IMG/VR virus record: IMGVR_UViG_3300021400_000113
Location: 40,932 to 104,931 of that record
Source: a virus
Lineage: Duplodnaviria; Heunggongvirae; Uroviricota; Caudoviricetes
Length of the DNA stretch: 64,000 bases
Direction: 5' to 3' (one strand)
Positions 3,693 through 41,607 of this stretch are shown here, in pieces (the stretch's first letter is position 1; every line of letters starts with the position of its first letter). A program made the position numbers and the translations under genes. Below the pieces are notes generated by a model. It had not been told where the DNA came from, did no database searches, and saw only the letters and a program-made list of their open reading frames with translations.

Positions 3693-4109
3693 TGGCCTTA
3701 GACGGGTCAAACGATGTAGGCTTTTTCCCAGCTCATTGGGTTAAGTGAGCATTAAGAGACTTGCCCACGCCTCTTAATAATGCGTACCAGGGAAGCACGT
3801 GGCTACAACGGTTAATAGTAGCAATATGGCGAGGTAGACCAATTTGGCAGAGTCAAGAGACTTTAGTAAAATTGAGCACTAAATAGGAAACTATTTATGT
3901 GAATCGCGTCAAATTCGGTGAAACTCCTTACAGGACAATACCGAGCGAAGCCTTTTAGGAACGTGTAGAGACTTGACGGCGCGCACCTAAACAGAAATGT
4001 ATGGTGAAGATAAAGTCCAGACTACAACGCTATTGCGGCCATAGTAATATGGAGTAGTAAGAAAATCTCTGTAGTGTGGGTTCGAATCCCATCCTCGCTA
4101 CCATTTATG

Positions 4110-4185
4110 TCCTCGTAACAGAATTGGCATATGTATTCGGCTCAAACCCGAAGTTCTGTGGGTCCGACTCCCACCGAGGATACCA
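4110..4185 (+). tRNA. class-I tRNA with CAA anticodon (Leu codon UUG; short variable loop)
   Basis: Acceptor gtcctcg/cgaggat with a G-U pair. Anticodon stem ttcgg/ccgaa, loop ctcaaac. T-arm gtggg-tccgact-cccac. CCA is encoded. Confidence 0.45.
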
Positions 4186-4186
4186 T

Positions 4187-4264
4187 GTCCAGTTGGCGCA
4201 ATTTGGCAGACGCGCATGGTTTAGGCCCATGTTTTTGAAGGTTCAAATCCTTTACTGGACACCA
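4187..4264 (+). tRNA. class-I tRNA with TAG anticodon (reads CUA; short variable loop)
   Basis: Perfect acceptor gtccagt/actggac. Anticodon stem catgg/ccatg, loop tttaggc. T-arm gaagg-ttcaaat-ccttt. CCA is encoded. Confidence 0.5.
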
Positions 4265-6423: not shown

Positions 6424-6504
6424 ATAGTGTTGCGAGCTTAGTCGCAGGAAAGTTACTACCCTAAGGCAACCGTTGTGAGTTTGGTGTTCAAAACTCTCAT
6501 ATGG

Positions 6505-6632
6505 GCGAGTAGCCAAGTGGTCAAAGGCATTGGAACCATAAATGAATCTAGTGACTAAGGTTCTAACAGCTACTTAATGGACTGTAAATCCAAGGCGAAA
6601 GCTACGCAGGTTCAAATCCTGTCCTCGCCCAT
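6505..6632 (+). tRNA. tRNA-like gene with ~50-nt insert inside the anticodon stem (terminal loop ctgtaaa, GTA)
   Basis: Perfect acceptor gggcgag/ctcgccc. Class-II D-arm gccaagtggtcaaaggc. ttgga...tccaa encloses about 58 nt. T-arm has ttcaaat. Confidence 0.35.
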
Positions 6633-6637
6633 TACAA

Positions 6638-6727
6638 AGGGGAGTGGTGTAACGGCAACACGCAGGTCTCTAAAACCTGGGCCTTCTGAGGGCGTCATTC
6701 TCGGTTCAAATCCGAGCTCCCCCGCCA
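6638..6727 (+). tRNA. amber suppressor tRNA (anticodon CTA, reads UAG), with a long variable region
   Basis: Perfect anticodon stem caggt/acctg with 7-nt loop ctctaaa, giving U33-CUA-A37. D-stem gtgt/acac. T-arm ctcgg-ttcaaat-ccgag. 3' end ctccccc-g-cca. Variable region is about 20 nt. Confidence 0.6.
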
Positions 6728-10022: not shown

Positions 10023-10099
10023 CGGGCATTCGTATATTGGTATGATTACGCCAGTCTTATAAACTGGTCAGGGTGGTCCGATTCCACCATGCCCGACCA
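10023..10099 (+). tRNA. tRNA-Ile (anticodon TAT, AUA-reading type)
   Basis: Perfect acceptor cgggcat/atgcccg. Anticodon stem ccagt/actgg, loop cttataa. T-arm ggtgg-tccgatt-ccacc. CCA is encoded. Confidence 0.5.
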
Positions 10100-11650: not shown

Positions 11651-11741
11651 GGGGAGGTACCCAAGTGGTTTAAGGGGGCTGCCTACTAAGCAGTTAGGCT
11701 AGGTAACTAGCGCGTGGGTTCAAATCCCACCCTCCCCGCCA
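11651..11741 (+). tRNA. class-II (Ser-like) tRNA with ACT anticodon
   Basis: Perfect acceptor ggggagg/cctcccc. D-arm cccaagtggtttaaggg. Anticodon stem gctgc/gcagt, loop ctactaa. Variable arm gctaggtaactagc. T-loop ttcaaat. CCA is encoded. Confidence 0.45.
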
Positions 11742-11742
11742 T

Positions 11743-11816
11743 GGGCGAGTAACCGAATTGGCATAGGTACCAGACTAAGAATCTGGGTTTTGAGGGTTCA
11801 ACTCCCTCTTTGCCCA
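11743..11816 (+). tRNA. tRNA with AAG anticodon (reads CUU; short variable loop)
   Basis: Acceptor gggcgag/tttgccc with G-U pairs. Anticodon stem ccaga/tctgg, loop ctaagaa. T-arm gaggg-ttcaact-ccctc. Confidence 0.4.
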
Positions 11817-11821
11817 TTTAT

Positions 11822-14245: not shown

Positions 14246-14629
14246 ATGAAAGAAGAAACTCGAATTCGTCAGCAAGAATATAAAGTTTATGTTACTAACG
14301 ACGGAAAAGAATTTACAAGTAAACGAGACGCAGAAAAACATGAAGTAGAACTTATGCCAGAAAAACAAATTCCAAACTTCCCTATCACTTTAAGAGCAAT
14401 GGAAGAATGCGGACGCTGCTATAAAATAGAATCCGAAGCAGATTTAAATTATTTGACATACAAAGAATGGAAAATTGCTTATTATGATTATATAGGGCCC
14501 GGATGGTATATCGTAATTTCACGCGATGGTGGCGATTCAGAAGATTACTATACGATATTTCCTGCAAGTAATTATATTCAAGATCTTCAGCATGATTTAA
14601 ATGAATTAAAGGAGTTGGATACTAAATGA
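14246..14629 (+). CDS. hypothetical protein
   Basis: ORF of 127 aa. Confidence 0.5.
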   Translation: MKEETRIRQQEYKVYVTNDGKEFTSKRDAEKHEVELMPEKQIPNFPITLRAMEECGRCYKIESEADLNYLTYKEWKIAYYDYIGPGWYIVISRDGGDSEDYYTIFPASNYIQDLQHDLNELKELDTK

Positions 14630-15189
14630 AATCATTTCTTGCTGGTGCCTTTATTGCCTTAGGATGTTGTTTATATATAAGTATTCCAGATAAAATTATT
14701 GGCGCTATTTGTTTTTCAATGGGACTTCTAGGTATTAGAATATTAGGTTTAAACTTATTTACAGGAAAAACACAATTTTTCTTAAAAAAAAATTCTCCTT
14801 ATAAACCACAAGATATATTAATGATATTTGTTGATAATTGTTTCGGTGTAGCGTTTATTTTATTTCTTACTCGCTGGACTCCAATCTATACCGCCGCACA
14901 GACAATTGGGTTAGCTAAAAACGCAATTCCAATTTATACATTATTTTTCAACAGTATAATGTGTGGCATCTTAATGACTATTGCTACCTATAAAGATACT
15001 CCATTATGGGTAAGTTCTCTTGCGGTTTTAGCTTTTATCACGGCGGGATTTAATCACTCAGTAGCAGATACATTTTATTTTATAGCAATGGGTGGTTGGG
15101 TTGCTCCATTAAAAATATTAATTATAGCCTTGGGCAACTTAATTGGTGGTCGTCTCGCGGCCTTAACTATTAGATTAAAAGAAAATTAA
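14626..15189 (+). CDS. integral membrane protein (multi-pass)
   Basis: Several hydrophobic segments. Confidence 0.5.
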   Translation: MKSFLAGAFIALGCCLYISIPDKIIGAICFSMGLLGIRILGLNLFTGKTQFFLKKNSPYKPQDILMIFVDNCFGVAFILFLTRWTPIYTAAQTIGLAKNAIPIYTLFFNSIMCGILMTIATYKDTPLWVSSLAVLAFITAGFNHSVADTFYFIAMGGWVAPLKILIIALGNLIGGRLAALTIRLKEN

Positions 15190-15201
15190 TAAAAAAAGGA
15201 G

Positions 15202-15230
15202 TTGAATTTTTTTTTATAAAATGCTATAAT
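15202..15230 (+). promoter_or_regulatory. variant promoter copy (TTGAAT -35) upstream of structural module
   Basis: ttgaat at 15202-15207 and tgctataat at 15222-15230, 17-nt spacer. Confidence 0.4.
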
Positions 15231-15299
15231 TCATCTATTAATTTACCACTTTATTTTTAGAAGTATTGGTGCAAAACTAATACATAAGGGGGGATAAAA

Positions 15300-15791
15300 A
15301 TGGCTATAAATAATTTAATACCTCCTAACCCACAACATGCGGTTTTAAAAAGAATTTATCCTTGGGATAAATATAATATTAATTTAATTCTCGAATGGTT
15401 ATATGAATAGGCATAGCAAACCGGATTCACTGGATCATTTGAAGAATTTAAATTACATTATGGGGAATATGTTGATTCTTTAGATATAGAAAAAATATAT
15501 GAAATTATCGGCCTTTATACCGAATCATATCATGTAACACCAACCGAAAATGAATAGGTTCTATTGACTAAAGATAAAATATTAAATCAAAATATAATAA
15601 TTAATCCCATTCCCTCAGAACTTATTCCGCAAGAATATTCTGGGGGATATTTAGTTACTCCTCTCCCTTATGTAGATCAAATTCTAAAAACAGAAAATAA
15701 AAAAATGACAGAAAATGTTGTGGTAGAGAAAATACCATACTATGAAACTAGTAATGCCGCTAATGGAAAAACAATTTATATTGGAAATTAA
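15300..15791 (+). CDS. hypothetical virion-associated protein with three in-frame TAGs
   Basis: RBS aagggggg then ATG at 15300. Frame is continuous with ORF 15564-15791 through 3 TAG codons. Ends TAA. Confidence 0.4.
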
Positions 15792-15803
15792 TGAGGTGAT
15801 TTT

Positions 15804-16412
15804 ATGGCTAATGAGTATATAAATAAAGTTATATACGGTGGAACTACTTTAATTGACTTAACTTCTGATGATATTACAGTATCTGACGTGCTAACAGGTA
15901 AAAAATTTCACTTACCTTCTGGTGCTCCAGCCACTGGTACATGCGCCTATGATGCTGACACATCTGACGCTACAGCTGTGGCAGCGGAAATTTTATCAAC
16001 AAAAACTGCTTATAAAAATGGTAGTAAATTAACTGGTACTATGCCAAATCGTGGTTCAGTAACTGGAACTATTTCAACCGTAAGTGGAGAATATACAATT
16101 CCACAAGGCTATCATGACGGATCAGGTAAGGTTAGTATCGCTTCTTCAGAGTAGGCTAAACTTATTGCAACTAATATTCGTGAAGGTGTAACTGTATTAG
16201 GGGTAACTGGTACTATGAATGGTAGTGAAAATGTTAAATCCACTGCCGCCTCAGTCACTCCTTATACGACCGCTCAAACAATTACTCCAACTGATTTAGG
16301 AGATTTTAACTCCATTACTCAAATTAATGTCGCAGCAATTGCGTACACAGAGACTGATAACGCAGCAGGCGGTAAAACTGTTACCATTGGTACAGTAAAT
16401 CCTAATAATTAA
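15804..16412 (+). CDS. tail fibre / receptor-binding-like protein, one in-frame TAG (16152-16154)
   Basis: ORFs 15804-16154 and 16215-16412 share a frame and are separated only by TAG. The N-terminal motif is paralogous to the next gene. Ser/Thr/Gly/Asn-rich. Confidence 0.5.
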
Positions 16413-16426
16413 TGGAGGAAAGGCCA

Positions 16427-16738
16427 ATGGCAAATAATCAATATATAAATAAAATAATATATGGAAATAATACCTTACTTGATTTATCTGAAGATACCGT
16501 TTCAGCAAATAAAGTATTTGTTGGAGAAAGTTTTCATTTGCCTACTGGCCAACGAACCATTGGAACGGCAACCTCAGATGCAACTGCGGCTGCCAATGAT
16601 ATAATAAGCGGTGAAACCGCGTATGTAAATGGATCAAAAATTACTGGTACTCTAGTAATTCAACATTATTATACGGGTTCCACCGCTCCGAGTTCATCTT
16701 TAGGTAATGATGGAGATATTTATTTACAACAAGATTAA
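16427..16738 (+). CDS. tail fibre-like paralog
   Basis: MANNQYINKIIYGNNTLLDLSEDTV... parallels MANEYINKVIYGGTTLIDLTSDDITV of the upstream gene. Confidence 0.5.
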   Translation: MANNQYINKIIYGNNTLLDLSEDTVSANKVFVGESFHLPTGQRTIGTATSDATAAANDIISGETAYVNGSKITGTLVIQHYYTGSTAPSSSLGNDGDIYLQQD

Positions 16739-16751
16739 GGAGGAATAAAAG

Positions 16752-19184
16752 ATGTCACAGGTAATTAATATTACTGATAGTAAAACTATTATTCCTTCTG
16801 GTTATGATAGTAATAACTCATCATATTCTAGTATTAATAGCAGTTATCCAGTAACCAACGGTTATACTGATGCCGATTCTACCTCTTATGCTTATATAAC
16901 TTGTAATACTGGCTCTCATGCTACTACGTATATTTCTTATACTTTTGATACTTCAGAAATTCCAGAAAACGCGGCAATAGATTCTATTACTTGTAAAGCT
17001 AAAGTACGCGTAAGTTCTACTTCTTATATTTCTACCGGAGTCACATAGCTGTACACCGGAAGTATAGCGAAAGGCAGTGCGACAACTACAAGAAGTACTA
17101 CAGCAACTACATATGATTTAACTACTGGAACTTGGACCCGTACAGAACTTAATGACGTTCAAGTACGTTTTACAGGCACGCGTGGTACAAGTAATACCAC
17201 CCGTGCCGCTTATTTATACTTTTATGGGGCTACTCTGACTATAAATTATTCTATTAATGGAACATAGTATAGTATTGTAGCAACCAGTAATGTTGAAAAT
17301 TATGAAATCTCTCCAAATCATCAAAATAAAATGGAAGGAGAGGAAGCAACGGTTACTATAACCGGAAATAATTTAGAAGATATTATCGTAACAGATAATG
17401 ATATAGATATAACAGAAAATTTAATATAGCATACAATTGAAAATACTGGAAGTGTATCCGCAATCCCAGGAGAAAATTTTGAAACAGGATTTAGTTCTTC
17501 TAATGCAAATTTTTATATGTCTTCAAGTTCAACCGGAACAACATGGTTAGAATATGCAATTGGGCACTCTGCTGAAAATCCATATACTTCTTCTAGCTCC
17601 CATAATACTTATGTTAAAGATAATGACAATAATACTGCAACTGGCTGGATTAGCTTCCCATTCGATTTTAGTGAAATTCCTTTTAATGCCGTAATAGATT
17701 TGGTTACAGTTAAAGTATATGGCGCACGTGAGAATTCAACCACTGATTCTACTCACGTAGCAAAATTTGGAGTCTATTGTAATGGAGTATTAAAAGGGGC
17801 AGAATAGCAATTTACTAGTACGACAAGTGGTATTGTTACTCTAACCTCCCCCGGAACCTGGACGCGCGAAGAATTACAATCAGCAGAACTTCGTTTTACA
17901 GTTGCGTATTATGGAGGACATTTAGATGGCGCTACTTGGACTGTAAATTACAGCGTTCCTAATACAGGAAATAATTATTATTGGACTTATGATTTAACTA
18001 ATATCAATGCAGACCATGTTATTTTAATAGATTAGCGTGGTGCTTTTATTCCTCCCGAAGAAAATCCAGAATATGAATATTATCCAATAACGATTTCTAG
18101 TATTAATGCTACTACAACCCCACATAATGGCTCTACCCGTATAATAGAAGGAAGCAATCAAACTATTACTATATCTCCTTCTGACCCACAATTAACACTT
18201 GCTTTAGATAATGGAGTAGACATTACAAGTCAATTGTAGGGAGGCACCCCTGAAAATACTTATACAATAACTACACAAGTCTCAGGAGCAAGTTATGGCT
18301 TTAATCTAAATGAATCAACTGGATATTATGTTTCAACTAATAGAGGAGTTTCAAATTCAGCAGCAGTTGCTAGACTTAATATGAATTTTGAAAGTAATTG
18401 TTTAGTAACAATACAATATATCAACTATGCTGAATCTGGATATGACTATGGACTATTTGGAAAATTGGACACGGTAGTATCAACAAGCGGTCTAACCGCT
18501 TCCAGTGGTAGTTCCTCCCCATCTGATAGTGATAACTATCAGTTAGCAATGGCATCTAATAATAGTGGCACACAAACAATAACTTATGAAGTACCCTATG
18601 GAGAACATTTTATTGATATTAAATATGGTAAAGATGCTGCGACCGATTCTAATAATGATACTTTATAGTGGAAAGTATTAAGTATAGAAGCCACCAGTGT
18701 CGGTGGAGATTATACATATACATTAACAAATATACAAGAAAAACATAGTTTAATTTTCATATTTGGTAATGTAAATTATTATTTTATAAATTCTTCCGGA
18801 ACAGAATGTAAATTATACCCGGATGGATAGATGGTTAAACTGGAAGGAGATAAATATAATTTAAGAATAATTCCAAATGATGTGAAAGCAACCGTAACCA
18901 TTGTAGATAATAATGTAAATGTTACAAATTTATTATCTATAGAAGAAGGAATAGATAAAAATAACAATCCAATTATTAATTATATATATACTTTAAATAA
19001 TATTATACAAACACATAATTTAGTTATTACATGCATTACTCATCATTAGATTTTATATACTAAAATTAATGGAAATTGGATTAATTTTAGTAAAGCTTAT
19101 GTTAAGATTAATGGCTCTTGGGCAGAGCAAACAGAACTAAGGTAGGTATTCGATAGCCGATTAAATTATGTAAAAGGAAATTAA
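16752..19184 (+). CDS. large tail fibre / adhesin-like protein (~811 codons) with ~10 in-frame TAG codons
   Basis: ORFs 16752-17048, 17517-17807, 18381-18668 and 18831-19049 all share frame 0. Only TAG codons interrupt them. First TAA is at 19182-19184. Composition is Thr/Ser/Asn/Gly-rich. Confidence 0.55.
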
Positions 19185-19187
19185 TAT

Positions 19188-19216
19188 TTGACTTTTCTCT
19201 AAATTTATATTATAAT
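19188..19216 (+). promoter_or_regulatory. conserved phage promoter copy
   Basis: ttgact at 19188-19193 and tataat at 19211-19216, followed by atatatgtaaaaaag. Confidence 0.55.
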
Positions 19217-19281
19217 ATATATGTAAAAAAGAAAACCTACGGTCGTGACAACGACTAAGATGAAAAGGAGAGAAAAGGAAT

Positions 19282-20790
19282 ATGAATACTTTACTAAATG
19301 CGATGAAAAATGCTACTAATTATACTCACACCGAAAATGGAGCTATTACTCATGTTACTTCTAATTCCGCTCTACTAGACATGTTTGGTATGGGCGGTTC
19401 TATGCGCAATCGCTCTGATAATGATGTAATTTTTATGTTTAAAAAGGCATATGATGAAAATCCTGAATATGCCCTAAAGTGCTTATTTTATCTTCGTGAC
19501 GTGCGCGGTGGTCAGGGAGAACGTCGTTTTTTCCGCACTGTAATTAATTAGCTTGCTAATGAAAACAAGGAAGCGGTTATTCGCAATCTTGAGGCTATTC
19601 CTGAAATGGGACGTTGGGATGATTTATATTCTCTAATTGGTACTTCTTGTGAAAAGGAAGCATTAAACTTTATGCTTCATCAAATCACCCTTGACGCCGC
19701 AAGTAAGACTCCCTCTCTACTTGCTAAGTGGCTGAAATCTGAAAATACTTCTTCTGCGGAAAGTCGTCGTTTAGCCACTAAGACTCGTGAATATTTTGGA
19801 CTAACTCCTCGTGAATATCGTAAAATGCTTTCTAGTCTACGTACCAAAATCAATGTTCTTGAAAAGCTAATGTCTCAAAATCGTTGGGATGAAATCGAAT
19901 TTGATAAGATTCCTTCTAAGGCTGGACTTATCTATAAGAATGTTTTTGCTACTAAAGATGTAACCAAAGCTCGCTATGCGGCTTTTATGGCAAATAAAGA
20001 GACCAAGGTAAATGCTAGCGTACTAAATCCCGTAGATATCGCCAAACAAATTTTTTCCTCTAACTATGCCTCTAAGGTAGACCGTCTTGCTTGGGATAAA
20101 TATTGGGCAAATTTAAAAGACTATTACAATGGTCGTGAAGAACGCGGCATTGCCGTAGTAGATGTCAGTGGTAGTATGTATGGTACACCTCTATACGCCG
20201 CAGTATCTATGGGTGCTTATATCGCAGAACGTGGTAAGGGGCCTTTCCAGAATCACTTTATCACTTTCTCTGATAAACCTGAACTTGTTGAGTTCAATGG
20301 TATCGACCTTTATGATAAGTTCCGTCGCGCGGAAACTGCGAACTGGCAAGGTAGTACTAATGTTGAAGCAGTGTTTGACTTGCTACTTGATACCGCTAAG
20401 AAAAATCATGTGACTCAGGAAGAAATGCCTGAAACACTTTATATCCTTTCTGATATGGAATTTAATAGTTGTATGACTGATAGCACAGTTACTTACGATT
20501 ATTGGGGTCGTCCTCGCCGTAAGATTCTTGAAAATTCCGCAGAAGTAAATACTCTAATCGAAAAGAAAGCTAAGGAATGGAAGGCCGCGGGATATAAAGT
20601 ACCTAATGTGGTATTCTGGAATCTTGATGCGCGGCAAGATAATATTCCTGCAATTGGGGAAGGATTCTTTTACGTATCTGGTAATTCTATGAACGTAATT
20701 GAAAGTATTCTTTCTCGTACTCCTCCTAAAACCGCGACAGAATTAATGATGGACGTTTTAAACCGTCCTAGATATAGCAATATTCATTAA
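19282..20790 (+). CDS. vWA-domain protein (DUF2828/TROVE-like), one in-frame TAG (19549-19551)
   Basis: ORFs 19282-19551 and 19606-20790 share a frame across TAG. Has a MIDAS-like VVDVSGSM motif. Confidence 0.5.
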
Positions 20791-20800
20791 TATAAAAATA

Positions 20801-20836
20801 GGGTTAGACGAAAGTCTAACCCTTGATTTTTTTTTA
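20801..20836 (+). terminator. rho-independent terminator
   Basis: Hairpin gggttagacgaaagtctaaccc followed by a T-run. Overlaps the -35 of the next promoter. Confidence 0.6.
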
Positions 20837-20851
20837 AATTTATGATATAAT
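20823..20851 (+). promoter_or_regulatory. conserved phage promoter copy (TTGATT variant)
   Basis: ttgatt at 20823-20828 and tgatataat at 20843-20851. Confidence 0.5.
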
Positions 20852-20884
20852 ATTTTTGTAAGAAAGAAAGAAAGGATTGATCTT

Positions 20885-21475
20885 ATGCTTCCGAATTTTC
20901 ACTTCTCTATTGAACGTTGGCGCAAGAATAAGGAATATGGAGTATGGGTTAGTACAGAAGGGCGCATTCGACTTATTCAAAATAAAGAATTTCTTAATGT
21001 TCGTATTGATAAAAGTGGATATTGTGTTGTCTTTACAGAGAAAGGACAACAATTCGTACATCGCCTTGTAGCTTACACTTGGCTTGGGGACAAACGAAAT
21101 GAGAAGTATAATATTGATCATATCAATAGCAATAAACGCGATAATTCTGTGAGAAATCTGCGTTGGGTAAAAATTGAAATTAATACCCAATATGCTCAAT
21201 ATACACGAACACAACTTGATTCAATAGAGTGTATTGAAAAAAAAGAAGATATAGAGACACGAAAACAGCTATTATATCAGCGCTTTCGTAATAAGGAAAT
21301 CTATATTGGTATTAATGACAATTACTTTTCCGATTATGTAGAAATTTGTAAATTTTTACATATCTCTAATACCCCTCCTCTTAAAGTATTTTGCGCAAAT
21401 GTATTAATGGCTATTGAAAAGAATACTACATATATGGGATATATATGGAATATTAAGGAGAAGGACGATGAATAA
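20885..21475 (+). CDS. HNH homing endonuclease
   Basis: HRLVAYTW...IDHINSNKRDNSVRNLRWV is an HNH_3 / NUMOD-type motif. Confidence 0.6.
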   Translation: MLPNFHFSIERWRKNKEYGVWVSTEGRIRLIQNKEFLNVRIDKSGYCVVFTEKGQQFVHRLVAYTWLGDKRNEKYNIDHINSNKRDNSVRNLRWVKIEINTQYAQYTRTQLDSIECIEKKEDIETRKQLLYQRFRNKEIYIGINDNYFSDYVEICKFLHISNTPPLKVFCANVLMAIEKNTTYMGYIWNIKEKDDE

Positions 21476-33947: not shown

Positions 33948-36821
33948 ATGGCAATAAAAAGTAAACCTCATAAATCCCCAAATTTAAATTGGCATAATAT
34001 GGGCAATTTAATTTTTTATAATGGACTAGAACCTTTTAATTTTTATTTTGATCTATTGTTAGAGGACTATGAAAAGCGTCCTCCTGAATATAATAGCTTT
34101 GCTAACGCTATTGGAGAAGCCGCGAAAAGTAAATTTAATTCAACTATAAACTCATTAAAAAATAATAAAGACGACGAAGGAATGACAAAATTAGAATCAA
34201 TACCCGCTTATTTAGAAAAAGCTATTTAGAAAGAATCAAATAATGAATTAGCTTTTTTTAAACAAAAATATGAATGGTTTAAATCAAATTTTTCTGAAGA
34301 AGAATTAAATAATTTACCAGAATTAAAATTTTTATTCGATTTTTTTTCCAATCCAACCACTCAAAGTGGAACTATTGATTATCCTCGCTTTTTAGCCGCA
34401 ATAAATATATTAATACAAGGATATGATAATGCAAAAGAAATAGTAAAATATGAGCGAAAGCGTCTAGAAGATTTAGAAAAACGATTCGCAGAAGCGAGAA
34501 AGGCCGCGGGAAGACGTGCAGTCGGATTAGCGAAAAAAAAATATGGATATGACGATATTGAAAAATAGGAATAGTGGCGAGAAACCGCAAAAATGAAAAA
34601 TCGTCGAAAAGTAGAAATTCATTATTTAAAAAATAAAAATTTCAATGATGAAAAAAAAATAAAAGGCTTAGGGTTAAAAACACGACTAGAAGGATTAGCG
34701 AAAACTGCCGATGTTGAAGTCGCAGATTGGATTACTAAAACATTATAGAATATGTTAGAATAGCCAGCAATACGTAATAAAATAGAAACATTAATTATTA
34801 AAAATAAAAACTTAGTATTTACAAATCCATAGCAATTAGCGCAAAAAGTCAAAAGCTCTTTAGTACAAAATATAACTAGTTATGGCGTTAAAAATATAGG
34901 AAAAATATTATCAAATCAAATTACTACAAAAAATCTCGATGAAATTATTTCAGAAGTTGAAAAAGATTTTACATATGATTATGAAATAGAAGGATTTTAC
35001 GAAAATTTTGGATAGTATGGTATTGAATTGGATTTTTTTAGAAATCCTAATAACTTAAATAAAGATGGCACTAAATCCGCGGAAAGACTATATGAAGCAT
35101 TAAAGCGCCTACAACATTTGCTTTCTTTATCACGACAAAAAAATAGTAGAATAAAACTTACCGACGAACAAAAATTTGTTGCTTCTGTTTTTTTTAAAGA
35201 TGAAGGAATTATTAATATAATGAGCATGATTTCTACTATTGAAAAATAGATGAAAGAAGTAGAGAAGGCAATTGAAGAAGTAAAAAAAACAGGACAGGCG
35301 CGAGATAAAACCTTAAGACTTACATATAAAGAATATATTCCCAATCAGCTCAGAGGTGAAAAAAATGATGGTAAAATTAAACTTCATATTGACGCAAATG
35401 GGAATATAGATTTAACCTCTCTTAATAGAATATATGGTAAATATACTAAAGAATTAGGATTTGGCTCTGACCGCATAAGAGCAAATACTTTATAGGGATT
35501 AGTATCAGGATTAAAATCTCGTCTAAGTTAGAAAATGCGAAATCAATTAGAAGATTTAATTTCTGGAAATACAAAAATTAAACGCAATAAAAAATTTTCT
35601 ACTTAGTCACAAATTAATCAAGCATTATAGGAAGGACTTGAAGGAATAACCGTATTTATAAGCGCCCCAGATCTCTCAGAAATTGCGCAAGGACTTCAGT
35701 TTCATATGGATGGAGATAACGTTTCTTTAATATGGACAGGACCACATAAAACAAAAAATGACTTCGTTACTATTACTATTAATACCCCAATAGCAGAAAT
35801 AAAAACAGAAGTTTCTTCTATATTAAATACTGATATTGAAAATCTTGGAGAAGATATAGAACAATTAATTTAGAATAGCAGAAAAGAAACTGCGAAACTT
35901 TTAGGAGAAGGACTAGCACACTATTCAACTAGCTTATCAGATAAAAAACAATATAATAAACAAAATGAAATTATGAAAGAATATGAAAATTCATAGAAAG
36001 AATACTTTGAACTATCTGAAAAAAATAATGAATTATTAGAAAATATGCCAAATCTTAAAGAATTATTAGAACGTGTAGAACGCACAAATAAAGGGCAATC
36101 CCCAGAACAAATTTCCGCGAAGAAAAAACAACTTCTTACAATGTTAACAGATTTCTTTTACGAATCTTCTACAATGAAAACCTTTAATCATTATGTTAAT
36201 GATGTTGGATTTGTAGGAGGAGGAATAGGAGGAGACGTCATAGCCCAAATGAATAAAATTGAAGAAATGTTTTTAAATGCAGGAATTTAGCTTGGAACTG
36301 ATAAAGATTGGTTAATAGGAGCTATTATTAACTGTTCTTCTCATAGTGTTATAGGAACTGAATATTAGAGTACTATTGAGCAATATTTAGGAGCTATAGC
36401 GGTTTTTGCAATGTTTGATGAAGGAGCCGTCGAATAGAGTGTAATAAATAATACCGCCAATATAAAAGGTAATACTAAATTTTTACATTTATACAGATTA
36501 AACGGAGGATATTATTTAGGTTCATATGTACTAACAAGAGTATTAGAATAGTTTAATGAATATATTTCTAAAATAGAAGAAGTTTCTACTAAATATTCTA
36601 ACATACACGGAGGAATTGCTATTCTAGGAGGTGGAATGACTCCACAAGATATACCAAATAGAGGACTTTATTCTTCAGAACCACAAAATCGTTCTCCTTG
36701 GCAAACTGTATCTGCTACTGCAAAAGGACGCGCATCAATATAGGTAGTATTTTTAGCAGGATTATTACAGACATTAAATTAGATTGAGGCCGCATTAAAT
36801 AATATTGAATATCCCGCCTAA
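33948..36821 (+). CDS. large (~958 codon) protein with ~21 in-frame TAGs; possible tape-measure or internal virion protein
   Basis: ORFs 33948-34229, 35028-35249, 35250-35495 and 36045-36290 all lie in frame 0. The frame is unbroken by TAA or TGA until TAA at 36819-36821. Gly-rich GFVGGGIGGDV segment and coiled-coil-like regions. Confidence 0.45.
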
Positions 36822-37361: not shown

Positions 37362-37583
37362 ATGAAATATAGTTTTAAAGAATGGATTAAAGCCGCGGGT
37401 ATGCGTGCTTTAAAAACTGTGGCTTAGACAGCAATTGCTACAATAGGAACTACTGCTGTACTATCTGATGTAAATTGGGCAATAGTAGGATCTTCAGCCG
37501 CATTAGCAGGTATTTTAAGTTTATTAACAAGCATAGCTGGACTTCCAGAACTTAAAGAACCACAAGAAGAAATAAAGGAATAA
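37362..37583 (+). CDS. holin-like small membrane protein with one in-frame TAG (37425-37427)
   Basis: RBS aaaggaggg. Sequence MKYSFKEWIKAAGMRALKTVA-[TAG]-TAIATIGTTAVLSD...SSAALAGILSLLTSIAGLP has two hydrophobic segments. Confidence 0.5.
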
Positions 37584-40737: not shown

Positions 40738-41607
40738 ATGGATAAATCCCCATTTAATTATGTTGGTAATAAATTTAAATAGTTACCGCAACTATTTTAG
40801 ATTTTCCCTACAGATATAAATAATTTTGTAGATTTATTTACAGGAGGAGCAGACGTAGCTACTAATATGATTTCACACGCTAATATCATATATGCTAATG
40901 ATATAAATAAATTTACAATAGATATAATGAAAGTTTTTTAGGAGAAATCAATTAATGAAATATTAAGGTTTATAGATAATCGTATAGCAGAATTTCAATT
41001 AAGTAAAACCAATAAAGAAGGATATTTAAAATATAGAGAATTATATAATAATGGAACTTATTCAACTCCATTAGATTTATTTACTTTAACACGATTTAGC
41101 TTTAATAATAATTTACGTTTTAATAATAATTGTTAGATGAACCAAGCCTTTGGAGCTAATCGTTCTTCATTTAATCCAGCTATGAGAAAAAATACAATTA
41201 AATTTCATAAAAATATTCAATCAATTATTTTATCATGTCAAAGTTTTGAACTATTTTCAATAAATAATTTAAATTCAAAAGATTTTATATATGTAGATCC
41301 TCCTTATTTAATTTCAGACGCTTATTATAACGTCGGCGCGAAAAATGCTGAATTAAGATGGGAACAAAAAGATGATTTAAAATTATTTGATTTTTTAAAT
41401 AAAATCAATGACAAACAAATTCCTTTTGCTATGTCAAACTTTATTCATCATAAAGGAAAAACAAATGAAAAGCTTATAGAATGGATAAATGATATGAAAT
41501 TGAATACTTATGATATTAATTCTGATTATTCTCATTGCATAGCAAATATAAATAAAAATGATAATCCTACACTTGAAGTAGTAGTGACTAATTATAAAAA
41601 GGAGTAA
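40738..41607 (+). CDS. Dam-like N6-adenine DNA methyltransferase with four in-frame TAGs
   Basis: ATG at 40738 is in frame with ORF 41137-41607. N-terminus FNYVGNKFK-[TAG]-LPQLF...FVDLFTGGADVA is a Dam SAM-binding motif. DPPY catalytic motif at YVDPPYLISD. Confidence 0.65.

Follow-up and report, generated by a model that had tools for sequence, protein, structure and literature searches.

The window analysed here is a stretch of 64,000 nucleotides (nt) of phage DNA (IMG/VR record IMGVR_UViG_3300021400_000113, positions 40,932 to 104,931 of that record). The region 16752-19184, referred to below as the large gene, contains ten in-frame TAG codons and is almost certainly a single recoded gene. 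From comparison with related sequences, TAG is very probably read as glutamine (Gln) in this phage, i.e. according to genetic code 15. The explanation that fits the results best as a whole, and which is considered probable, is that of a code-15 gene decoded by a phage-encoded tRNA(CUA) and having an adhesin-like product. The large gene is an ordinary case of the TAG-to-Gln code already known from phages. Recoding of this kind, including that of fragmented tail-fibre genes, is established, and the potential for novelty is confined to the large uncharacterised family to which the product belongs and to the structurally unusual suppressor tRNA.

The reading frame of the large gene

In its own frame the region translates into 811 codons, of which 810 are sense codons and the last is the terminal TAA at 19182-19184. 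The only internal stops are the ten TAG triplets at codons 99, 172, 226, 352, 428, 496, 639, 693, 766 and 798 (first bases 17046, 17265, 17427, 17805, 18033, 18237, 18666, 18828, 19047 and 19143); neither TAA nor TGA is present. At the base composition of the window (34% G+C), about 48 TAA or TGA codons are expected per 810 codons, and the probability of finding none is about 3e-22. Each of the other five frames contains 45-107 stops in the same region. A first-pass annotation of the DNA had joined four listed open reading frame (ORF) fragments into one gene on the grounds that they share a frame and are separated by TAG alone. Translation confirmed this, as fragments 2-4 begin 765, 1629 and 2079 nt downstream of 16752 and hence lie in a common frame. 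The gene is indeed shredded when read with the standard code. The number of pieces is 11, of 12-142 codons each, and not the eight or so estimated earlier, and just four of them are listed as ORFs of at least 60 amino acids.

Homologues of the large protein were sought among about 5.8 billion proteins, and more than 1,300 were found. Of the 120 highest-ranking ones, the majority have a length of 790-820 amino acids and 100% query coverage, with 53-98% identity. One database protein, encoded on a 9-kb ENA metagenome contig, differs at three residues. A separate search of 1.8 billion cluster representatives yielded 1,463 homologue clusters. The length of the homologues ranges from 450 to 1,680 amino acids with up to 12 matched stretches, which shows a modular protein with a variable number of domains. 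Source names for the protein were sought among the members of the homologue clusters and none was found. The region 15000-21000 gave no megablast match to GenBank phages, and a tblastn search of the same phages with the large protein gave one partial match only, to an unannotated faecal contig. No relative was present in 185,579 species genomes, and hence there is no evidence of the protein in prophages of reference genomes.

The DNA of eleven orthologous loci (L001 and L003-L012) was aligned codon by codon. Five of the orthologues (L003, L004, L005, L006 and L009) are free of TAG. Each is an intact ORF of 790-810 codons that matches the window ORF collinearly over its whole length, with 60-65% identity. 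Because these orthologues align from end to end in one frame, switching of the frame between the fragments is ruled out and so is an origin of the fragments from unrelated proteins, the two objections that the first-pass annotation had itself raised. Coding coverage is nearly equal under both codes in L003, L004, L006 and L009 and less clearly so in L005 (0.58 and 0.61). In L001, L007, L011 and L012, whose orthologues have 12-21 TAGs each, reading TAG as sense raises the coverage from 0.39-0.45 to 0.87. Across related phages the same gene thus contains 0, 5, 10, 12 or 18-21 TAGs. Loci that appear standard-coded and loci that appear recoded are alike in their similarity to the window gene, with 57-65% identity of the protein.

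Probable translation of TAG as glutamine

The residues that orthologues have in place of TAG point to Gln. The five standard-code orthologues contribute 50 cells to the ten columns in which the window gene has TAG, and 25 of these cells contain Gln, encoded by CAA or CAG, compared with a background of 3.35% (binomial probability 7e-24). In the columns of codons 99, 639 and 693, all five have Gln. When all 31 columns with TAG in any of the sequences are taken together, Gln is the commonest alternative (89 of 256 cells), glutamate and lysine are mildly enriched, and serine, tyrosine and leucine are not.

The window as a whole behaves in the same way. It contains 57 in-frame TAGs, which are spread over 17 of its 77 genes. 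None of the 77 genes terminates in TAG (60 end in TAA and 17 in TGA), and coding coverage increases from 0.60 under the standard code to 0.76 with TAG as sense. PHROG and Pfam profiles run over the TAG positions in the genes for a Dam-type methylase, a GIY-YIG endonuclease, a Sak4-like protein and a TROVE-like protein. CAG is depleted in the TAG-bearing genes; the large gene has two CAG and ten TAG codons. TAG seems to replace CAG specifically. The G+C content at the third codon position is very low in the TAG-bearing genes (0.09-0.29), and the window contains 116 CAG codons in total.

Two genes alone hold 30 of the 57 TAGs. The one other than the large gene, at 33948-36821, has 957 codons with 20 in-frame TAGs and four CAGs. 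Its product is helical and rich in lysine and glutamate and has no Pfam match and only a marginal PHROG match. The gene follows closely on a terminator-like hairpin, and a holin gene (37362-37583, one TAG, phrog_443) lies about 0.5 kb further downstream.

The suppressor tRNA

The first 12.5 kb of the window contain 25 tRNA genes, and a tRNA with the anticodon CUA is one of them. It has an A1.C72 mismatch, the pairs G2:C71 and G3:C70, G10, U35, G73 and a variable region of about 20 nt. The first six of these features fit the presumed identity set of the E. coli glutaminyl-tRNA synthetase (GlnRS). An identical tRNA(CUA) is found in L014 (11608-11697, minus strand). A divergent one in L088, a 169-kb phage contig (7931-8021, minus strand), has compensatory changes in the anticodon and T stems and keeps the long variable region. 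Such a class-II-like architecture is unexpected if, as it appears, the tRNA inserts Gln.

It is most likely this tRNA that decodes the ten UAG codons, and it would be charged with Gln by a host enzyme. Complete protein could then be produced only after the tRNA has appeared. With so many UAGs, full-length synthesis would depend steeply on the abundance of the suppressor, and expression would be tied to the stage at which the tRNA array is on, i.e. to later infection. Suppressor-dependent late expression is the published model for recoded phages, in which TAG-to-Gln recoding is concentrated in structural and lysis genes (bioRxiv 10.1101/2021.08.26.457843).

Two other interpretations of the TAG codons have to be weighed. 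If they were true stops, the region would be a decayed pseudogene or a group of independent small standard-code ORFs. Translation table 11 does list just four ORFs of 72-98 amino acids, and the host presumably uses the standard code. This interpretation is nevertheless contradicted by the frame and by the orthologues and is extremely improbable: 810 codons free of TAA and TGA, full-length collinear orthologues without TAG, Gln in the TAG columns, a tRNA(CUA) gene in the window, higher coding coverage with TAG as sense and the lack of genes ending in TAG all argue against it. In the other interpretation TAG is read through as serine, tyrosine or leucine, which the class-II-like long variable region of the suppressor and its G73 would suggest; the architecture of the tRNA (90 nt, about 20 of them in the variable region) is conserved in the divergent L088. 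These amino acids are disfavoured because Gln is enriched at the TAG columns, about tenfold, and they are not: serine accounts for 26 of the 256 cells and tyrosine and leucine for three each, which is at or below background. The mild enrichment of glutamate and lysine, which commonly exchange with Gln, also speaks against this interpretation, as do the all-Gln columns at codons 99, 639 and 693 and the presumed GlnRS identity elements, and it is regarded as improbable. The TAG reassignments published for phages are to Gln only (bioRxiv 10.1101/2021.08.26.457843).

Directly upstream of the suppressor, a tRNA-like sequence at 6504-6630 scores 30 bits with the Rfam tRNA model, just over the gathering score, and is missed by ARAGORN. 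Its anticodon loop is interrupted by a 54-nt insertion and its variable region is longish, and it could be an intron-containing or a disrupted tRNA. The array contains further oddities (4109-4264, 11742-11817, 11651-11741 and 10023-10099). These are three tRNA-Leu of 76-78 nt that lack a long variable arm, as well as tRNA-Ser(ACT) and tRNA-Ile(TAT), which have unusual anticodons.

The protein

With Gln at the TAG positions, the product has 810 amino acids, a mass of about 88.8 kDa and an acidic pI of about 4.6. It is rich in threonine (13.3%), serine (10.7%) and asparagine (9.8%), in agreement with the first-pass annotation. An AlphaFold2 model built with 53 homologues is entirely beta. It is confident, with a mean predicted local distance difference test score (pLDDT) of 85.6; its predicted template modelling score (pTM) is 0.42, and such a low pTM is typical of independent domains on a string. 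Comparison of the protein with itself by BLASTP revealed an internal duplication (residues ~36-224 with 276-495, E value 8e-18), and TAG codons 99 and 352 occupy equivalent positions in the two module copies. In the third and most conserved jelly-roll, residues ~497-650, many residues are invariant among the 53 homologues. The terminal hairpin repeats are two K(I/V)NGxW units, and the orthologues align up to the last residues.

The jelly-roll domains of the predicted model are similar in fold to solved carbohydrate-binding modules (CBMs). Neither the large protein nor any of seven longer homologues matched a family in profile searches against Pfam, PHROG, NCBIfam and PDB. Neither a signal peptide nor a catalytic domain was found in the large protein. 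It represents a sizeable uncharacterised family, with a CBM-like modular beta fold in the model.

The operon and its counterparts in relatives

The large gene is the last in a tightly packed operon of four genes (15300-19184), each preceded by a Shine-Dalgarno sequence. The first gene is syntenic with a 165-amino-acid gene bearing eight TAGs in L007 and L011. The two middle genes, of 202 and 103 amino acids, share the N-terminal sequence MAN(E/NQ)YINK(V/I)IYG..TL(I/L)DL, as had been noticed in the first-pass annotation. They are 48% identical over 87 amino acids (E value 2e-20) and match the same part of phrog_13589. The earlier suggestion of duplicated modules holds for these two genes, which are paralogous, and not for the large ORF, which is not detectably related to them: it was tried as a paralogue of the small upstream genes and rejected (BLASTP E value 1.6). 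The duplication in the large ORF is the internal one described above.

The 103-amino-acid gene has retained two conserved motifs, MANNQYINKIIYG at the N-terminus and YYTGSTAPSSSLGNDGDIYLQ at the C-terminus. Its counterparts in relatives are repeat proteins of 259-1,063 amino acids. Compared with the upstream genes of L001, L004 and L007 it looks collapsed, with nothing left but the two terminal motifs and a single repeat. The gene that ends 13-20 nt before the orthologue of the large gene encodes the C-terminal sequence YYTG(S/T)(S/T)AP(S/A)SSLG.(D/N)GDIY(L/I)Q in 11 of 12 loci.

In relatives the orthologue is accompanied by fibre-like and lysis genes. The standard-code locus L003 contains an Mtd_N fibre-like gene, two endolysin genes, genes of 201 and 306 amino acids, the orthologue and, after it, a gene for a protein with Laminin_G_3 and CBM_4_9 domains. 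In L001, holin and SH3 genes follow the orthologue directly. The order in L007, L011 and L012 is a 165-amino-acid gene, a 201-amino-acid gene, its 179-amino-acid paralogue, two extra fibre-like genes and the orthologue. Comparison of the fibre-like neighbours in the relatives with PHROGs gave almost no annotation.

The family of the 202-amino-acid protein extends further. Homologues with 50-77% identity occur in 72 loci, mostly of Clostridia genomes and metagenome-assembled genomes. In the Oscillospiraceae phage PV036438 the homologue is located between tail genes and the holin and endolysin genes. In a prophage of [Ruminococcus] torques ATCC 27756 it follows Dit, a minor tail protein and a reverse transcriptase/Avd pair of a diversity-generating retroelement (DGR); no lysis gene was identified near it in this prophage.

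The role of the protein

Judged from predicted fold and gene order, an adhesion or tail-associated role of the large protein is somewhat favoured. The role is proposed because of its two supports, the resemblance of the fold to CBMs and the syntenic fibre-like and lysis genes of relatives. The product would be a virion-associated adhesin or a receptor-binding accessory, with a polysaccharide on the cell surface of a Clostridia-type host as its target. It probably acts together with the repeat protein encoded directly upstream; the conserved C-terminal peptide of the latter accompanies the large gene almost everywhere. Identity as a tail fibre, under which name the gene was first annotated, is plausible from context and fold. 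When the TAG-readthrough translation was searched against family and PDB profiles, neither a tail-fibre family nor a Pfam CBM family matched, and the model is a string of beta-sandwiches in which no trimeric fibre is recognisable.

Several observations weigh against a code-15 gene with an adhesin-like product. No tail-fibre or other sequence family in Pfam, PHROG, NCBIfam or PDB matches the protein; the monomer model lacks a coiled coil, a beta-helix and a recognisable tail-attachment domain; and the matches of the whole-chain fold have low TM scores and are to generic beta-sandwiches. The genes on either side of the window operon are non-structural (those for a kinase, a phosphoesterase and an FNT-like transporter and the TROVE-like and HNH genes). 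Replication and recombination genes also carry TAGs, so that recoding is not strictly specific to late genes here, and the long variable region of the suppressor is typical of Ser, Leu and Tyr tRNAs and not of Gln tRNAs. The protein might instead be a genuine recoded product that serves as a Hoc-like capsid decoration or binds carbohydrate outside the virion, for example as a cell-wall-targeting lysis accessory. Such a function would agree with the beads-on-a-string model of immunoglobulin (Ig)-like and jelly-roll domains, which has no hallmark of a fibre, with the lack of tail-fibre homology, with the holin and endolysin neighbours in several relatives and with the distance from any recognisable structural gene in the window. 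Against it stand the tight spacing of 13-20 nt to genes for fibre-like repeat proteins with conserved terminal motifs and the partner 202-amino-acid family, whose genes close the tail modules of unrelated phages and prophages of Clostridia; the absence of both a signal peptide and a catalytic domain also argues against it. Decoration or a non-virion function is on balance rather unlikely, and the adhesin-like, tail-associated role is preferred.

Features, promoters and neighbouring genes

Coordinates of the large gene, its domains and associated features in the window
Feature	Coordinates	Strand	Characteristics	Basis
tRNA, anticodon CUA (amber suppressor)	6638..6727	+	90 nt	ARAGORN; Rfam tRNA 52 bits
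Promoter-like site ahead of operon	15202..15230	+	TTGAAT-17-(TG)TATAAT, degenerate variant	
First operon gene	15300..15791	+	163 amino acids; 3 TAG (codons 37, 39, 86); function unknown	phrog_31538
202-amino-acid gene	15804..16412	+	1 TAG (codon 117); three [DN]I..G.TAY..G.K.TGT-like repeats	
103-amino-acid gene	16427..16738	+	No TAG; paralogue of 15804-16412	phrog_13589 and phrog_38337 matches
Large gene	16752..19184	+	810 codons; ten in-frame TAG	Ribosome-binding site AAGGAGG 7 nt before ATG; stop TAA
Module A1 (predicted), residues 1-230 (approximate)	16752..17441	+	Jelly-roll and small Ig-like beta-sandwich; TAG 99, 172, 226	AlphaFold2, BLASTP
Module A2 (predicted), residues 231-496 (approximate)	17442..18239	+	Second copy of jelly-roll and Ig-like domain; TAG 352, 428, 496	AlphaFold2, BLASTP
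Most conserved jelly-roll, residues 497-650 (approximate)	18240..18701	+	TAG 639 inside conserved LQW motif	
C-terminal beta-sandwich region and terminal beta-hairpin repeats, residues 651-810	18702..19181	+	TAG 693, 766, 798	AlphaFold2, alignment
Consensus-type phage promoter directly after large gene	19188..19216	+	TTGACT-17-TATAAT	

A highly conserved extended promoter, TTGACTTTTT...AAAATTATGATATAATAAATATGTAA, recurs about 30 times in the window, in front of gene blocks and clusters of tRNA genes, for example at 145, 363, 797, 2561, 4628, 5070, 8216, 19188, 28561, 37593, 49168 and 54050. The extended form can be written as TTGACTTTTT...AAAATTATG(A/T)TATAAT(A)AATATGTAA. The first-pass annotation had placed the large gene immediately downstream of a variant promoter. 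The site at 15202-15230 does deviate from the consensus of the 30 or so copies, but the large gene begins 1.5 kb further downstream, beyond three other genes. The idea that TAG-rich genes go strictly with a particular type of promoter was considered and rejected.

The promoter at 19188 starts the next transcription unit with the TROVE-like gene at 19282-20790 (DUF2828/DUF7788, phrog_850, 'RNA-binding protein'), which has one TAG. Upstream of the operon, 14626-15189 encodes a formate/nitrite-transporter-like (FNT-like) membrane protein (PF01226, E value 4.5e-19).

Significance

The general significance is modest because recoding itself is well described. The large gene is a clean worked example of TAG-to-Gln recoding, in which gene calling with the standard code would break an 89-kDa product into 11 pieces and conceal a large phage protein family that is conserved and unannotated. 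Its orthologues, which have from 0 to 18-21 TAGs, form a natural series for the spread of recoding through CAG-to-TAG change. If the product is a true adhesin, the gene and its partner would be useful markers of host-range determinants in large gut or rumen Clostridia phages. If the suppressor truly accepts Gln, a class-II-like tRNA would present the glutamine-charging machinery of the host with an unusual substrate. A bolder proposal is that the protein of about 800 amino acids and its ever-adjacent repeat partner constitute a new, widespread and entirely unannotated class of two-component adhesion device of large Clostridia-infecting phages (more than 1,400 clusters at 50% identity), with new CBM families and an atypical Gln-accepting suppressor tRNA. 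It is offered as a tentative idea, with the balance against it.

Comparison with known systems

The known code-15 clades are the crAss-like, Lak, Jade, Sapphire, Agate, Garnet and Amethyst phages (bioRxiv 10.1101/2021.08.26.457843; PMC9523058). Code 15 is reported to have been validated by metaproteomics, the insertion of Gln having been shown for crAss-like phages only (PMC9523058). Recoded tail-fibre genes have already been reported in Phassvirus (PMC10607447), and the descriptions of code-15 gut phages include close relatives with the standard code and alternatively coded modules at scattered positions (bioRxiv 10.1101/2021.08.26.457843; PMC10607447). The phage studied here resembles code-15 phages in its large AT-rich genome, in the concentration of in-frame TAGs in a subset of genes, in the phage-encoded tRNA(CUA), in the Gln residues of homologues at TAG positions, in having close relatives that encode the same gene in the standard code and in the alternatively coded modules scattered through the genome. 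It differs from the described code-15 phages in that the region searched (15000-21000) has no nucleotide match to any GenBank phage, in the long variable region of its suppressor tRNA and in the presence of TAGs also in methylase, homing-endonuclease and recombination genes.

The jelly-rolls of the large protein resemble in fold the galactose-binding-like or jelly-roll CBMs (CBM4, 6, 15, 16, 29, 32 and 86) and MAM domains. Identity to solved CBMs is just 5-14%, and no Pfam CBM family matches. Like the modular adhesion proteins of phages that infect Gram-positive bacteria, among them Mtd-type fibres and tail, baseplate and fibre proteins decorated with CBMs, the large protein is modular with a number of domains that varies across homologues, and in relatives its gene adjoins Mtd_N-type or repeat fibre-like genes and lysis genes. 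It differs from them in having neither sequence homology to any annotated tail protein nor a trimerisation signature. It also has a likeness to T4 Hoc, an acidic string of small beta-sandwich domains with no enzymatic domain. Unlike Hoc, the large protein is much bigger, consists mainly of jelly-rolls and is linked to fibre-like genes and not to head genes.

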